Shown piece by piece: positions 54,148 through 61,123 of a stretch of 64,000 nucleotides of DNA. Source of the stretch: Phycisphaerae bacterium. GTDB taxonomy: Bacteria > Planctomycetota > Phycisphaerae > UBA1845. The notes under the pieces are model-generated. The model saw nothing but the letters and a program-made list of their open reading frames with translations, was not told where the DNA came from and did not search any database. The stretch is from the NCBI GenBank assembly GCA_963666835.2, contig CAXXGO010000006.1, positions 896,001-960,000 on the forward strand, in the 5' to 3' direction. Both the position numbers and the translations under genes were made by a program. Each line of letters starts with the position of its first letter. Positions within the stretch are counted from its first letter, which is position 1.

Positions 54148-55434
54148 GTGGGCGATTGGACTATTTTGGTCGGGCTGCTGGCGCTCGTAGCGTTGCTGTT
54201 GTTCTCCACCTTGAACCATGCACTGCACGTCCTGTCGCGCGCGCGGCTGGCAGAGCAACTCAAGAAGGTTCAGCGGGAGAGCGTGTTCGAGAACTTCGTG
54301 GCCGCGCGTCCTCAGTATTTGCTCGCCACGGCTGTGTTGCGGTCGATATTCACTTTGCTGCTGCTGGTAACGGTATTCGCGTACTTTGACGTCGTCGGTT
54401 CAGAGCGTCCCGGGGCAGCGACGGCCGGATCGGGTGCGGTGGCCTTGGGGTTCGTGCTGGTGTTCGGCGTAGCCATCCCCAACGCCTGGGCGAAGTACTG
54501 CGGCGAGTGGCTGATTGTCCGGGTGCTCCCTCTTCTAGCGGCCGTTCGCGTTCTGTGTTTTCCGGTGACGGTAGTTCTCGCGGTTTTCGACCCGTTCGTT
54601 CGCCGCCTGGCCGGGGTGCCGGTGCGTGACGCGCGGTCCTATGCCGACGAGCTCGAGCAGGAGATTCTCAACGCCGTCAGCGAAGGTGAGCGCCACGGGG
54701 CGGTGGATGAGGAAGAGAAGGAGATGATCGAGTCGGTCATCGAGCTGTCTGAAACGCGAGTCGAGGAGATTATGACTCCGCGGACGGATATAGTCGCCCT
54801 CGACAAGAATACCGAGCTTGACGACGTCCTGGACATCGTGCGGGTAAAGGGGCACTCGCGGATTCCGGTCTTCGATGAGACGATCGACGTGGTGCTGGGC
54901 GTCCTTTACGCCAAAGACCTTTTGCGACAGACCAAAGACACTCCCTTCCGTTTGACCGCCATCATGCGGAAGGTGCTGTTCGTCCCGGAATCGAAGCTCG
55001 TGCGCGAGCTTCTGCGCGAGTTTCAGACTCAGAAGGTCCACATTGCGGTTGTCTTGGATGAGTACGGCGGGACCGCGGGGTTGGTAACGATCGAGGACAT
55101 TCTCGAAGAGCTCGTCGGGGAGATTGTGGACGAATACGATCGCGCCGAGCCGGTGGAACTATTCCGGATAGACGACCAGACCATTGAAGTGGACGCGCGG
55201 ATGCGGATCGACGATTTGAACGATCAGTTCGACATAGACCTGCCCGAAGACGAAGACTACGAGACGATCGGTGGGTTCGTCTTCAGCACCTTGGGGAAGA
55301 TCCCCGAAGTCGGCGAATCGTGCGGCCACAAAAACATCGGGATTCAGGTTATTGCTGCCGACCCGCGTCGGATCGTTCGCTTGCGCCTGAAGATGGTTCC
55401 CGAGACGGCGACCGACACCCCTCCTACGGATTGA
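54148..55434 (+). CDS. Hemolysin/CNNM-CBS-CorC family protein
   Basis: TM region, IMTPR, HSRIPV, DEYGGTAGLVTIEDILEE and YETIGG. Confidence 0.92.
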   Translation: MGDWTILVGLLALVALLLFSTLNHALHVLSRARLAEQLKKVQRESVFENFVAARPQYLLATAVLRSIFTLLLLVTVFAYFDVVGSERPGAATAGSGAVALGFVLVFGVAIPNAWAKYCGEWLIVRVLPLLAAVRVLCFPVTVVLAVFDPFVRRLAGVPVRDARSYADELEQEILNAVSEGERHGAVDEEEKEMIESVIELSETRVEEIMTPRTDIVALDKNTELDDVLDIVRVKGHSRIPVFDETIDVVLGVLYAKDLLRQTKDTPFRLTAIMRKVLFVPESKLVRELLREFQTQKVHIAVVLDEYGGTAGLVTIEDILEELVGEIVDEYDRAEPVELFRIDDQTIEVDARMRIDDLNDQFDIDLPEDEDYETIGGFVFSTLGKIPEVGESCGHKNIGIQVIAADPRRIVRLRLKMVPETATDTPPTD

Positions 55435-56398
55435 TCGCTCCGGAATTGCGCGACCGTACCGGATCCACCCACGCTCCCTCCCGATGGTTGATCGAGAAAA
55501 GCCGGTTGTCGCCGTCGAACTCCACGACCCCCGACTTGTTGACGTTGTAACCCAGAGATTCGAGCGTTTCCTCGGAACAATGGCCGTCGACCCACAACAC
55601 GTTGCCCCGCCCCCGATGACGCTCGTGGATTGCCGTGCGCGCCTGCTCCGATTCCTTGAGCCAGGCCATTTCGCCGATGTCAGGGTCCACGCATGGGGGA
55701 TCGAGATTGAACCCCTCGTTCCCCACGGCGGTTACCGATCGCCCACTGGCGCTGTCGCCGGGGAGGTTGTCCTCATAGCTGGTGCGTTCCTTCACCGGAA
55801 ACGAGGCGGCCGTGCCCAGACTGTCTGCCACAGCCACGCACTCTGCGGGTATCCGCACTTTTGAATAACGCACCGGCCAGTTCTTGAAGGATGTCGGATC
55901 ACTACTGTCGAGAAGTCTGGCGTTGCCAAGGAACTGGTAATTATACCCGTAGCACCCGTTGCGTTCGTCCGTCCACGTCGGCACGACCGGACACACGTAG
56001 AACTCGTTGGAGTAGTTCTGGCGATCGCCCGGCTGCTGATAGCGGTCTATTATGTTCTTGGTGGGTTGGGGGTCGTCGAAGGGCGGAAGACCCAACTGCG
56101 TTGCCATCATCGCCAGAAAGCTCGGCCGGTACTTGAGCCCGCCCTCGACCCTTATGGCCCATTGCTCACTGTCGACCTTGGGCATTCTGCCGGGCACGAG
56201 AACATCTTCATTCTCGTTGGCGTAGAGCACCAGCCCTTGCCCCACGGTGCGCAATCGCGTGGCACAGACCGTGGACTTCGCCTGATCCCGCGCCCGGCTC
56301 ATCGCCGGGAGCATCAGCCCGGCCAGTACGCCGATAATGGCCACGACCGTCAACAGCTCGATCAGCGTAAACGCCTTGCAGTGCCTTTGCCGGGTGAT
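55424..56398 (-). CDS. Prepilin-type N-terminal cleavage / H-X9-DG domain protein
   Basis: The frame extends upstream of 56353 to KAFTLIELL and contains RHRGRGNVLWVDGH. The only plausible start is ATC at 56398. Confidence 0.8.
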   Translation of the reverse strand: MTRQRHCKAFTLIELLTVVAIIGVLAGLMLPAMSRARDQAKSTVCATRLRTVGQGLVLYANENEDVLVPGRMPKVDSEQWAIRVEGGLKYRPSFLAMMATQLGLPPFDDPQPTKNIIDRYQQPGDRQNYSNEFYVCPVVPTWTDERNGCYGYNYQFLGNARLLDSSDPTSFKNWPVRYSKVRIPAECVAVADSLGTAASFPVKERTSYEDNLPGDSASGRSVTAVGNEGFNLDPPCVDPDIGEMAWLKESEQARTAIHERHRGRGNVLWVDGHCSEETLESLGYNVNKSGVVEFDGDNRLFSINHREGAWVDPVRSRNSGAINP

Positions 56399-56402
56399 CT
56401 GC

Positions 56403-57683
56403 CTATTCCTTCAAATCCAGGGCGATTACCGCGTTGCGGTCTCGAATCAACAGAGTCGTACCCGCCAGCGTCGGCGTCACCCGACACGGCGTTTCCAACA
56501 GCTTGACTTTGGAGTGGATAACCAGTCCCGGACCCTTGGCGGTCGCCAAGGCCAACACCCCGGTCTCATCCAGGATAATCAGTTTGCCGTCCCCATAGAC
56601 CAGGTGCGGTCTGGCGAAGCCCTCCTGTTGTCCCACGACCTTTCCGGTGGCGGCTTCCACGACGATCAGCGCCGGCTTTCCGTCCTTGCCGAGGCCGGAT
56701 CCGTACAGGTAATCGCCCAGGCGAATCACATTCGGGCCGTCAAGGGCGGCCGGAACTGACTCCCACATCTGGGCCGCGACCATCTTGCCCTCCATCCTCA
56801 TCAGGTGGAACATCCGCCCCGGCGTTCCTTCGCTCCCCGGAAAGAAGAGCTGATCCCCGGGTCCCCAGACCGGGTTGGCCTGGCTGACTGTCGGCACGGC
56901 GTCGTGGGGAGCACTCCAGAGGAATTCTCCATCAACTGCGCTGAACCCGATTACGCCGCGGGATCCCAGCAGGATGAGGTGAGGCTCGCCCTGGAAGTTG
57001 ACCACGATCGGCGAGCTGAAACCGTTTCGAAACGGTGCCGACTTCCAAACGGCGCGCCCGTCCTCGGGGGCCAACGCGGCGAACCCCATTCGCCCTCCGC
57101 CGGCTTGGATGATAATCAGCTCATTGTGCTCAATCGGACTCGAAGCGTAGCCCGTCGGGAGGAAGGTGCCGCCGAAATCCATGAACACGTTGCGGGTCCA
57201 TCGATACTTCCCGTCCGCCCTTTCCCAAGCGTAGATCTTCCCCGTGAACCCCACGGTATAGATGCCGTCTTTCAGAACCAGAGGGGTTGTTCTCGGACCC
57301 TCGCCGTGGCTCAGATCATATTTGCTCGTCAGGGGCGCCGGATACCGTGATTTCCAGAGCTCCTCTCCGGTCTTCATATCCAACGCCACCAGGGCTTCCT
57401 GCCACGCGTCGAAGAGATACATCACATAAGCCACGCCATCGGCAACCGCGATAGAACCACTCCCGCCCCCCAGTTGGTGGCGCCATAGTTCGCGCGGGCC
57501 CTCTGCGGGCCACTTGGCGGCCAGCCCTTTCGATGCAGCCTTGAAATCGCGGTTCTCGCCGCCCCACTGGGGCCATTGTGCAGAGGCTGCGGTGCCGGCA
57601 GCCAAGAAGAACGCCGCTGCCAGGGCGATCATCAGGCGTTCGGCCACCGTTCGATTCCCTCTTGTCCTGCGGTGTAATGACAT
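56403..57683 (-). CDS. PQQ-like beta-propeller (BamB-like) exported protein
   Basis: QWPQWGG, repeated W-terminated blades and GPRTTP; AGGAG RBS. Confidence 0.85.
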   Translation of the reverse strand: MSLHRRTRGNRTVAERLMIALAAAFFLAAGTAASAQWPQWGGENRDFKAASKGLAAKWPAEGPRELWRHQLGGGSGSIAVADGVAYVMYLFDAWQEALVALDMKTGEELWKSRYPAPLTSKYDLSHGEGPRTTPLVLKDGIYTVGFTGKIYAWERADGKYRWTRNVFMDFGGTFLPTGYASSPIEHNELIIIQAGGGRMGFAALAPEDGRAVWKSAPFRNGFSSPIVVNFQGEPHLILLGSRGVIGFSAVDGEFLWSAPHDAVPTVSQANPVWGPGDQLFFPGSEGTPGRMFHLMRMEGKMVAAQMWESVPAALDGPNVIRLGDYLYGSGLGKDGKPALIVVEAATGKVVGQQEGFARPHLVYGDGKLIILDETGVLALATAKGPGLVIHSKVKLLETPCRVTPTLAGTTLLIRDRNAVIALDLKE

Positions 57684-58219
57684 AGGTTTGGCTCTCCTAC
57701 TCTCGTACTTTGCCGACCGATCGCTCGGCAACTGATTTCATGCCTCTCCGGGTATCGGCGTTACCGGCGTGTGAGCCCGGATCATCAGAGAATAGTAACG
57801 TGGACCGCCTCCGCCAGCCATGCCCACCACGTAACGACGCGCGCGTACGCCGCTTCCCGCGACGACTCCGGGAGCACCGCTCCACCGAGTGCGCGGCCGC
57901 CCAAGTATTGTCGGCAGGTTAAGCGGTCCGATTAGGTCGGGAATCAGCCCGGGCGCCCGGCACGTTTAGATTGAGGCCGCAGGCTTCCCCGGAACCGGGC
58001 CACTATCTTCCGTTTATGGGACGTCATCCGACCGGGCCCAACGAAAGTGCGCGGAACGGCGCTCGAGTTCTCGGCATCCGTATCTCCCCTTGCGGCAAGA
58101 CTCGGTTCCACGGTCCCTTCGCGACGGTCTCTCGAGTCCGTGGCCTGCGACCCTTGTAGTAACTTCAGGCGTGGACCGCACCTCGACCTTGCGCTGTCGT
58201 ACGTGGTCAGCGAATTATG

Positions 58220-58248
58220 TTGACTCTCGATAACCGTTTCGATAGTCT
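58220..58248 (+). promoter_or_regulatory. Sigma-70-type promoter
   Basis: TTGACT-N17-TAGTCT upstream of ATG 58358. Confidence 0.5.
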
Positions 58249-58357
58249 CGATTATTGTGGGGTTGGTGTGCCATCATAAGGTGAAGTGCATCTTCCGATG
58301 GCCGGCCGGTTGGGTGTCTTACCCTGACTTTACTGCAACACTCAGGAGATCGGGATC

Positions 58358-59899
58358 ATGAAGCGGCGTTTTCAGACAAGCGATAGAGCGTTGTCGGTGG
58401 TTGCGTTGGGCGCACTGGTGGTGGCCTTCACCTTTTCACCTGGCGCACAGGCGGCGGAACGGATGGTGATTTGTGAGGAATTCACGAGCGTGAACTGAGG
58501 GGGGTGTAGCAGCGCGGGTACCGCGCTTAACGCCGTTCTGACGGCTCATCCGGACAGCTTCACGTATATTCAGATTCACCTAGACGCCTATTCGACGACC
58601 TGGGGTAACAACCGGGCTAACTTCTACAACATCGAGTACACCCCAACTGCGTGGTTTGACGGATGGTATTCCCTCGTCGGAGATACGCATCTGTACGAGG
58701 GGCGATACACGACCCGCTACAACACGCCGACCGATGTTACAATCGACATCAGCGGAGAGCCGGTAGGCGAAGCGACCTATGAGATTACGGCGAATGTCTG
58801 TATCGAACCCGGCGGCACCGCCAAGACCATGCGGGTGCATGTGGCGCAAGTGCTTGACTACTGGCCGTCCAGCCCATCGTATTCTCGTAACGGGCTCAAG
58901 CAGGCAGCTCCGCAAGCAACGGTCACCGTCGCCCCCGGCGCCTGTGAAGAGGTCGTCAATACGATGACCTTCGATGCGACCAGTTGGACGAACAAAACCG
59001 ACATCAAGATCATCGCCTGGGCTCAAAATACCATGAGTTCCGGACCGTCCGAGGTATACCAGGCCGCCAGGTGGTTCATCCCGATTCCGGGCGATTTCAA
59101 CGGGGATCGCAATGTGGACTCGGAGGACTACGACACGTTTACACTCGATTGCTTCACGGGGCCGGACGGTGGTCCGATCGATCCGGCCTGTACTCCGGGT
59201 GACTTTGACGAAGATGACGACGTTGACTGCGACGATTGGGACCAGTTCGTTCTGGCCTGGACCGCAGGGGGAGATCCACCTGCGTTCGAGACGTGTGTGA
59301 TAGCCTCCCCGGAGCACGCGGCCGGGGAGCATTCTGTCTTGAAGAACCGTTATATCTCGTTCAGTCCGATCGATGCGGGCGGTACGGAAGTCGCCTACCG
59401 GTTGGACACCACCGATAGCACGTTCTTCCCGGATACGGTCGGGACGACCAGGTGGATCGGTGACCCGGATGCGGATAACCTCGCTGGCGTAGAGTCGGAG
59501 CCGATCTACCGCAGTGCCTGGCCGGAAACGGTTCACGTCGGGAGTTGTCACATTGTCCCGGCGTCAGTCTATGCGGTTAGTGCTACAGATGGAGTGGCAA
59601 CGTCTGATCCCCTAGCGCTGTACACGATCATTCAACCCATCCCGAAGAACTGGGGAGATATCGCCGGACCGTTCATCGGTGGCGAGTGGACGGCCCCCAA
59701 CGGCACGGTGAGCATGGACGATGTGATGGCGCTTCTCCAGGTGTTTCAGGCAACCCCCGGTGCTCTCCACATGACCCGTGGTGATTTGCACGATAACGGT
59801 CCTAATCGCGTGGTCAACATGAGCGATGTCATGATTGAAGTGGGTTGCTTCCGCGGCGATCCGTATCCTTACGGTTCGGCGACCGACCCGTGCGAATAG
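58358..59899 (+). CDS. Probable secreted selenoprotein: thioredoxin/Omp28-like domain with UxxC, a dockerin-like domain and a C-terminal domain
   Basis: AGGAG RBS and signal peptide, then VICEEFTSVN-TGA(58496)-GGC and YTPTAWFDG. In frame with ORF 58829-59899, which contains GDFNGDRNVDSED and GDFDEDDDVDCDD. Confidence 0.85.
58511..58527 (+). promoter_or_regulatory. Bacterial SECIS-like hairpin
   Basis: AGCGCG-GGTAC-CGCGCT; the stem begins 12 nt after the TGA and the loop starts with G. Confidence 0.65.
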
Positions 59900-59952
59900 G
59901 CGTGTGACAGAGCTGCGTCACCACACTGCGTAGCGTAGCAGAACCACCGAAG

Positions 59953-59992
59953 CTCCCGGGGCGGCTCAAGACCGCCCCGGGAGTCTTTTTTT
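59953..59992 (+). terminator. Rho-independent terminator
   Basis: CTCCCGGGGCGG...CCGCCCCGGGAG followed by a T-run. Confidence 0.85.
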
Positions 59993-60253
59993 CACGGCCG
60001 GTGATTGCAGAGAATTGCCATCTTCGGGTGGTTAGCCCGGGTCATTCATCCAAGCCAAGGATCGGGCACCAGTCAGTGTCGTGCCAGGGCTTGTTTCCGG
60101 CGTGGAAGCACGCCGTGTTACCATTACGTCACCCACAAGGAATGACGCTACCGCGAGTTACGTGTAATCATGCGAACGTCATGAGTAGTCCGGGCCGGAT
60201 TCGTAGCGATTGATCGTGCCTGATGTACGGCTGCGCCGTGGGGATTATTGTCA

Positions 60254-61123
60254 TCATGCGGATCGGCCGGGTTGGGGCAAGCGCCGCCGGGTGATCTCGA
60301 CGGCCTGCACGTTGGCATCGCATCCGAGCCAACGCCGGTTCAAGCGGTGTGCCACCGCCAGCGCCGTTCCGCTGCCGCAGAAGAAATCACCGACCACATC
60401 TCCTTCGTTGGAACCGGCGCGGATGATCCGCTCGAGCAAGGCCTCCGGCTTCTGGGTCGGGTATCCGGTTCTTTCCTTGGCGACCGTAGAGAGAAACGGG
60501 ATATCCCAGACATCCGTCAGTTCCGGTCCCTCGGGGTGGAACTTGAGGGGGCCGTTCCGCGTGGACTTGTAGGGGGTACCATCTGCAGCGGTCTTCAGAC
60601 CACGTGTGCGGTATGATCCTCCGCGAAGCCGGTTGAACGTCTGCCGACCGGCCTGCCGGGCGTATGCCAGGATCGTGTCGTGTTTGCGAGCGAACCACTG
60701 CCCGCAGCGCCCGCCACTGCGGTATTGCCAGATGATCTCGTTCAGGAACTGTTCCGGGCCGCAGATCTCATCCAACATCACCTTGACATAATGCACCGTA
60801 CGCCAATCAAGATGAACGTAAAGGCACCCATGTGGAGAGAGCAGGCGGAACATCTCCGCCAAGCGGGGGCGGAGGAACTCCAGGTATCCGGCGACACCGC
60901 GCCCGTGCCGGTCATCGAACGTGACGCCCGGCCGGTCTGCGGCAACGTGCACGCGATTGCAGTTAAACGGCGGGTCGGCGTAGATGAGATCGCAGCAACC
61001 AGTCTCCAGCGTTTCCATGAACGCCAGATTATCCGCGGCAACGACCCTGCCCAAAGGAGCTGAAAGGGGGCTTGGCCGGTCCGCCAACGGAAGGACGTGG
61101 CTCGGTGATTGACCGCTGCTCAA
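60254..61123 (-). CDS. Orphan N6/N4 DNA methyltransferase (beta class)
   Basis: IYADPPF precedes YPTQKP and DFFCGSGT; no adjacent endonuclease. Confidence 0.88.
   Translation of the reverse strand: MSSGQSPSHVLPLADRPSPLSAPLGRVVAADNLAFMETLETGCCDLIYADPPFNCNRVHVAADRPGVTFDDRHGRGVAGYLEFLRPRLAEMFRLLSPHGCLYVHLDWRTVHYVKVMLDEICGPEQFLNEIIWQYRSGGRCGQWFARKHDTILAYARQAGRQTFNRLRGGSYRTRGLKTAADGTPYKSTRNGPLKFHPEGPELTDVWDIPFLSTVAKERTGYPTQKPEALLERIIRAGSNEGDVVGDFFCGSGTALAVAHRLNRRWLGCDANVQAVEITRRRLPQPGRSA

Follow-up and report, generated by a model that had tools for sequence, protein, structure and literature searches.

A predicted exported thioredoxin-like selenoprotein with a dockerin-like tail in a Phycisphaerae genome

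The closest described relatives of the protein reported here belong to GOS_C, a thioredoxin-like UxxC selenoprotein family of 2008 with unknown function (PMC2398784). Table 1 of PMC13188914 equates GOS_C with the NCBIfam model NF045500, 'Omp28-related selenoprotein', and the sequences in the supplement of PMC2398784 carry U at the same place as our protein, after E-D-F-T-x-x-N. A thioredoxin fold followed by a beta-sandwich is also the architecture of the exported HBP35 of Porphyromonas gingivalis (5y1a), of the Omp28 family (NF033782; PDB 2r2c) and of Atu2684 (2axo), and HBP35 reduces insulin in a CxxC-dependent manner and complements dsbA (PMC2907840). Dockerins (type I, PF00404, and GC-type, NF041540), in which paired Asp-rich Ca loops are followed by helices, are found on many exported Phycisphaerae proteins.

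The window, that is, the whole 64,000 nt stretch of DNA that was analysed, contains a frame resembling both kinds of protein. It runs for 513 codons from ATG 58358 to TAG 59897-59899 and has a sole internal TGA, codon 47 (58496-58498), in the context EEFTSVN-U-GGC. The standard (table-11) ORF call begins at 58829, 157 codons past that ATG. The original prediction had extended ORF 58829-59899 upstream to ATG 58358, had credited it with a good ribosome-binding site and promoter, and had warned that gene callers would miss the redox domain. The single frame with one TGA, an AGGAGA ahead of the ATG and a called start lying after the TGA agree with this, but not the promoter, as a scan of 57700-60300 for sigma-70-like sites found none on the + strand and gave only a terminator-like hairpin at 59952-59984. 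The features of the locus are as follows.

58344..58349, + strand, Shine-Dalgarno-like AGGAGA, 8 nt 5′ of the ATG (sequence)
58358..59899, + strand, full gene, 513 aa with TGA read as Sec (frame, and a second-study contig across the whole stretch)
58358..58453, + strand, putative signal peptide, residues 1-32 (by eye: basic N region, hydrophobic core, A-Q-A)
58454..58723, + strand, predicted thioredoxin-fold domain, residues 33-122 (model, HBP35 match, profile matches to thioredoxins)
58496..58507, + strand, putative U47-G-G-C50 active site, with the TGA at 58496-58498 (homologue column alignment)
58511..58527, + strand, candidate bacterial SECIS hairpin AGCGCG-GGTAC-CGCGCT, 12 nt past the TGA (folding and comparative data)
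58643..58645, + strand, P96, putative cis-Pro
58724..59086, + strand, predicted beta-sandwich (Ig-like) domain, residues 123-243, as in Omp28 and HBP35 (model and fold match)
59090..59272, + strand, dockerin-like pair of putative Ca-binding loops, D246-D257 and D282-D293 (sequence pattern; poorly modelled)
59291..59635, + strand, FN3-like beta domain, first half of the C-terminal module (pLDDT about 90; FN3 matches at Z 5-6)
59636..59896, + strand, terminal dockerin-like domain of atypical form, completing the module (NF041540 profile; three-helix model)
59952..59994, + strand, intrinsic-terminator-like hairpin, 13 pairs and a T run (terminator scan; such sites arise in shuffled sequence too, mean 1.9)

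The TGA is real and did not arise in assembly. One run of a second study yielded a contig that covers 58200-60000 and differs at two sites, both distant from the TGA and both synonymous, and a piece from a third sample spans the TGA with zero differences. One sequencing run, X1, may itself be the source of the DNA analysed. The identical TGA in the second-study assembly rules out the sequencing error that the original prediction had named as a possible refutation.

By eye, residues 1-32 fit the signal peptide that had been proposed, with cleavage inferred after A-Q-A, and a hydrophobic stretch lies 12-45 aa upstream of Sec in 75 of the 77 TGA homologues whose open frame extends far enough to show it. 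Residues 33-243 are predicted to fold into thioredoxin and beta-sandwich domains (pLDDT 95), for which the best fold matches are HBP35 (TM 0.80, E 1.4e-10) and Atu2684 (TM 0.67), so that the UxxC thioredoxin/Omp28-like domain of the original prediction is recovered both by predicted fold and by the NF045500 match given below. The segment YTPTAWFDG had been called cis-Pro-like: its Pro (P96) is invariant in 24/24 aligned rows, and the cis geometry is assumed from knowledge of the family. The likeness to HBP35, which here is by predicted fold, comes with differences: the window protein has Sec for the first Cys, the two proteins share 12% identity, and where HBP35 has a C-terminal attachment domain this one has a dockerin-like/FN3-like tail. 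A Pfam search with the whole protein gave no match, and a single-sequence PDB search nothing useful. The Omp28 lipoprotein model NF033782 scored 16.9 bits against a cut-off of 150, and inspection of the sequence shows no lipobox Cys at the signal cut.

NF045500 matched the window protein at 50.3 bits (E 2.3e-13; model positions 35-278) against a cut-off of 200, the two sharing the Trx-like fold and UxxC after E-x-F-T. The model matched 23/24 family members, while its cut-off was reached in 0/251 genomes of the order (best score 105.6). Since 50 bits stand against 200, we place these proteins in a divergent, mostly Phycisphaerae, modular branch; by its profile match the window protein is a divergent variant of GOS_C/NF045500 that shares the Sec site and lies outside the curated membership. 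Sec at this very position is thus already published for GOS_C/NF045500, and the original prediction overrated its novelty. Positions 266-377 of NF045500 match tails composed of TSP3 and dockerin-like parts, so a dockerin-like tail, too, is already within the known model; the window protein has the dockerin-like pair and no TSP3 match. What differs from NF045500 is that this branch has several paralogues per genome and varied C-terminal cargo, which among the 56 tails scanned included multihaem, FGE-sulfatase-like, Ig, FN3, FG-GAP, TSP3, DUF7901 and dockerin parts. The uncharacterised family of 2008 is in this way extended to a modular, multi-copy branch. Apart from a few Acidobacteriota, nearly every relative that carries a name is a Planctomycetota MAG, in most cases under the label Phycisphaerae, where the window organism presumably belongs as well.

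As a rule, the gene calls for the window gene and its relatives lack the signal peptide and the active site, and these proteins are beyond the reach of the curated family model. Among the best 150 database protein representatives, 95 of the protein records start past the Sec column, the expected sign of truncation at a UGA if these are homologous selenoproteins. Literature searches found no paper for Omp28 with selenoprotein, nothing related for Phycisphaerae selenocysteine, and no paper for Phycisphaerae hydrogenase with multiheme cytochrome and thioredoxin. The available part of the BSepDB supplement has no GOS_C family rows, and a term search of the available part of deep-Sep found neither the window protein nor its family named; further tables of either may list these genes.

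Profile searches found tRNA-Sec, selB, selA and two selD genes in the genome, all above cut-off, as the original prediction required in proposing a check for selABCD. One of the selD pair (G000:C1:1328296-1329225 and C6:1524365-1525294) is a Cys form and the other a Sec form. The window gene and its two paralogues in this genome (3/3) have TGA at the identical column. Across 120 homologous domains (the distinct ones in which the active-site column could be mapped; another 5 matches, without that part, were dropped) the column holds TGA in 79, Cys in 37, Gly in 3 and Tyr in 1; the rows are related and the counts therefore overstate independence. This is the pattern expected from the earlier claim that Sec replaces the first Cys. 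Two of the signs by which a bacterial selenoprotein is recognised are thus found: homologues have a conserved Cys where this gene has its in-frame UGA, and the genome has selA, selB, selC and selD. selA was also detected in 12/14 tested TGA-bearing genomes (of the other two, both have tRNA-Sec and one has selB), a co-occurrence that is weak evidence because selA is nearly universal (57/60 genomes) in the family. In a quick tree, unrooted and built from 113 rows (7 low-scoring rows of the 120 excluded), the Sec and Cys forms are interleaved, with 22 changes, at least 9 of them forced by strong branches; without a root, Sec gain and Sec loss look alike. On this comparison, the internal stop almost certainly stands for Sec, placed in the active site of a thioredoxin-like protein that is exported.

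The second Cys of the motif is kept in 74/79 TGA rows. The remaining five TGA homologues (L084, L087, L093, L101 and L147) have the hairpin and Asp, Ser or Gly in place of this Cys, and may be single-Sec variants. With these 5 of 79 rows and the 4 of 120 that have Gly or Tyr in the first position, some members of the family lack the full UxxC.

The bacterial SECIS model described in section 5 of PMC13188914 has a loop of 3-9 nt with G first, a stem of 4-16 bp, a distance of 16-37 nt from the UGA and an MFE of at most -7.5. The window hairpin conforms to this geometry, with a GGUAC loop that starts 18 nt after the UGA and a stem of 6-7 bp, and the 42 nt past the UGA have a folding energy of -21.6 kcal/mol. 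By folding energy alone the hairpin is within chance (z -0.91; 36/200 shuffles fold equally well), and it is the homologues that mark it. In the TGA rows a five-pair stem is 92% paired with a covariation of 0.44, which 0/500 shuffles match, while controls slid along the alignment are 28-52% paired; 73 of the 79 TGA rows were used here, the 6 with indels or without the second Cys having been excluded. The loop-adjacent pair alternates between G-C (45 rows) and C-G (22 rows) at two wobble positions. The Cys rows, in contrast, are within their shuffles, the stem being 63% paired with a covariation of 0.18 that 100/500 shuffles reach. Where TGA rows have Gly in the loop, its codon is GGT in 73 of 75; in Cys rows this holds for 13 of 27, and genome-wide GGT makes up 19% of Gly codons. 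The GC hairpin that had been noticed 12 nt past the TGA is thereby located at 58511-58527 with comparative backing, and the SECIS covariation that had been suggested as a check is present. Genome-wide, such a hairpin was found at only 22 of 14,525 open-flanked in-frame TGAs, including those of the window gene, one paralogue and SelD; the TGA of the Sec-form SelD is followed by an identical GGTAC loop, and the hairpin of the third paralogue, with four pairs, is below the scan threshold. An element so sharply defined and covarying is well suited to tests of SelB recognition.

We take the window gene to be a real, mis-annotated exported selenoprotein, as judged from sequence comparison. Our best explanation of it, to which we assign a probability of roughly 0.6, is an exported Sec thiol-disulfide oxidoreductase for a cysteine-rich secretome. 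From a stand-alone gene, SelB would bind the GGU-loop hairpin and direct insertion of Sec at codon 47, a step of which we are highly confident. Removal of the signal peptide would then expose a predicted thioredoxin and beta-sandwich unit of the HBP35/Omp28 type, in which the U47 selenolate would attack a substrate disulfide and C50 would resolve the mixed bond; by analogy to thioredoxin chemistry, the protein is probably a thiol-disulfide oxidoreductase of the envelope. The dockerin-like and FN3-like tail would be a generic sorting or Ca-binding tag, common to dozens of cysteine-rich exported proteins, and for that reason the disulfides of the secretome are the likeliest target. That the job is to reduce or reshuffle these disulfides, with DsbD or a sister protein fused to haem motifs doing the recycling, we consider an even bet. 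The genome has one DsbD gene and two VKOR genes, whose products are possible electron donor and acceptor.

Several results bear on the tail. The loop pair has the duplicated 12-residue loop of dockerins with D/N at 1, 3, 5, 9 and 12, and related pairs occur elsewhere in the genome, in about 16 further ORFs. In searches with the dockerin-like parts PF00404 gave no match and NF041540 gave 19-22 bits against a cut-off of 29; compared with those families, the terminal copy has loop insertions and an FN3-like domain attached to it. A fold search of residues 244-513 found only FN3 domains (Z up to 6.1, which is middling) and barely covered the dockerin-like parts. The C-terminal module (residues 311-513, about 200 aa) is present on 57 ORFs of the genome, 52 of which have it at the C-terminus. 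Most of these ORFs open with signal-peptide-like starts (by eye), and they contain 3.6% Cys versus 2.0% in other long frames, a control that includes non-coding frames. The module was found in 15/121 genomes of the order, chiefly within the family of the window organism (12/24). The stretch 59288-59896 that encodes it corresponds to no Pfam or NCBIfam family, and may be an unrecognised sorting signal.

Cohesin-like domains, all weak, are found in seven exported proteins, one in each of seven ORFs (L203, L204, L205, L041, L207-L209), with the best by hmmscan at 23.0 against a cut-off of 24.1. L204 combines its cohesin-like domain with HYR domains and a dockerin-like end. As each match is in a separate ORF there is no multi-cohesin scaffoldin among the seven, in a genome that is 92% complete and where divergent cohesins could escape the search. 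A complex prediction for one of the seven cohesin-like domains with the terminal one of the two dockerin-like parts scored 0.02 against a mark of 0.32, a value that speaks neither for nor against docking.

The window gene has relatives elsewhere in the genome. One paralogue, at G000:C6:886598-889069 (L202) about 7 kb ahead of the window, has UxxC-thioredoxin, TSP3 and dockerin-like parts and nine CxxCH motifs; its stop codon and the start of the gene for the small subunit of a twin-Arg [NiFe]-hydrogenase overlap. In 886598-893286 it is followed by the small subunit, the large subunit (which scores over the NF033181 cut-off), a maturation protease and an exported protein in which one CxxCH is combined with the C-terminal module described above. 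Nine CxxCH motifs are present in 27/120 family members, and among the 19 nine-haem homologues that could be tested (complete and followed by 200 nt or more of sequence) the start of a hydrogenase small subunit lies within 11 nt of the stop in 17 (11 Sec and 6 Cys forms). This conserved link gives the family its first testable function and is the part most worth pursuing. The third paralogue, at G000:C1:1961800-1965756 (L023), is about 1,318 aa long with UxxC, an FGE-sulfatase-like part, cysteine-rich repeats and the same C-terminal module, and is stored truncated in databases (P0021).

Two other accounts concern single parts of the best explanation. Reading the TGA as a true stop, in a pseudogene or through error, or as some other residue under an alternative code, would be in keeping with the downstream part having its own in-frame ATG starts and being called as a separate ORF. 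We reject the pseudogene and recoded versions and find the whole account exceedingly improbable, as the same TGA stands in the second-study assembly, in 79 genes TGA occurs only at the Cys column, the hairpin covaries, and ordinary genes of this genome (selB, the hydrogenase large subunit) end in TGA. The original prediction went further than we do in the other direction, with a protein docking on a surface scaffold, in the manner of a cellulosome-like complex ('planctosome') with dockerin on cohesin. Canonical paired Ca loops at residues 246-293, dockerin-like loops in 60/91 complete homologues, and the seven cohesin-like domains, one with HYR as in the planctosome adaptor proposed in PMC6461901, all speak for such docking, which would also be compatible with a secretome oxidoreductase. 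With sub-cut-off dockerin scores, a generic module and weak cohesin-like domains, one per ORF, the scaffold is possible but unsupported, and we regard it as somewhat unlikely.

The remaining accounts start from the haem-bearing members. In one, a respiratory or detoxifying network passes H2 electrons from a periplasmic [NiFe]-hydrogenase to the nine-haem UxxC paralogue, and UxxC modules, with the window protein as a haem-free partner, reduce extracellular disulfides, polysulfide or peroxides. The overlapping genes and their coupling in homologues favour this, as does the lack of a membrane cytochrome b gene among the ORFs of the hydrogenase locus. MccSep, which joins Sec and c-type haems in one protein, offers a functional precedent as a multihaem selenoenzyme reducing polysulfide (PMC13510729); the analogy is to the nine-haem paralogue only, and MccSep differs in that each subunit has five haems and that a haem site is ligated by Cys, whereas the paralogue has a separate thioredoxin domain. 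Because haem motifs are absent from the window gene, which is about 65 kb away from the hydrogenase operon, dithiol reduction by one-electron haems requires a converter, and 89/120 members have no haem motif in the part seen, we rate this network as rather unlikely. A fuller form of it we call unlikely: an extracytoplasmic H2-fed selenol redox network in these Phycisphaerae, where the coupled nine-haem/UxxC fusion would replace membrane cytochrome b, and the fusion and its haem-free siblings, gathered by the lineage-specific FN3/dockerin-like tag, would act outside the cytoplasm and without DsbD to reduce disulfides or polysulfide. We judge it quite improbable that the protein handles haem, whether as a CcmG-like reductase of apocytochrome CxxCH or as a haem-binding surface protein like HBP35; the fusions with nine CxxCH, the 17 ORFs of the genome with at least four CxxCH and the binding of hemin by HBP35 (PMC2907840) are weighed against a window gene that is not beside cytochrome c maturation genes and encodes no membrane anchor, the low identity to HBP35, and non-haem domains in most fusions.

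The neighbouring genes give no clue to the substrate. Divergently upstream on the minus strand (55424-57731) are genes for a PQQ_2 beta-propeller protein and for a second protein, with no evident selenoprotein link; the second has what we take to be a prepilin-like start, and no Pfam match at E 0.001. Elsewhere in the genome, about 1.8 kb ahead of the DsbD gene, a signal-peptide-bearing frame at G000:C6:417381 (+ strand) reads K-G-U-G across a TGA, with a GGT-loop hairpin 19 nt past it. This frame is a probable further selenoprotein, presumably resembling the DUF1573 selenoproteins.
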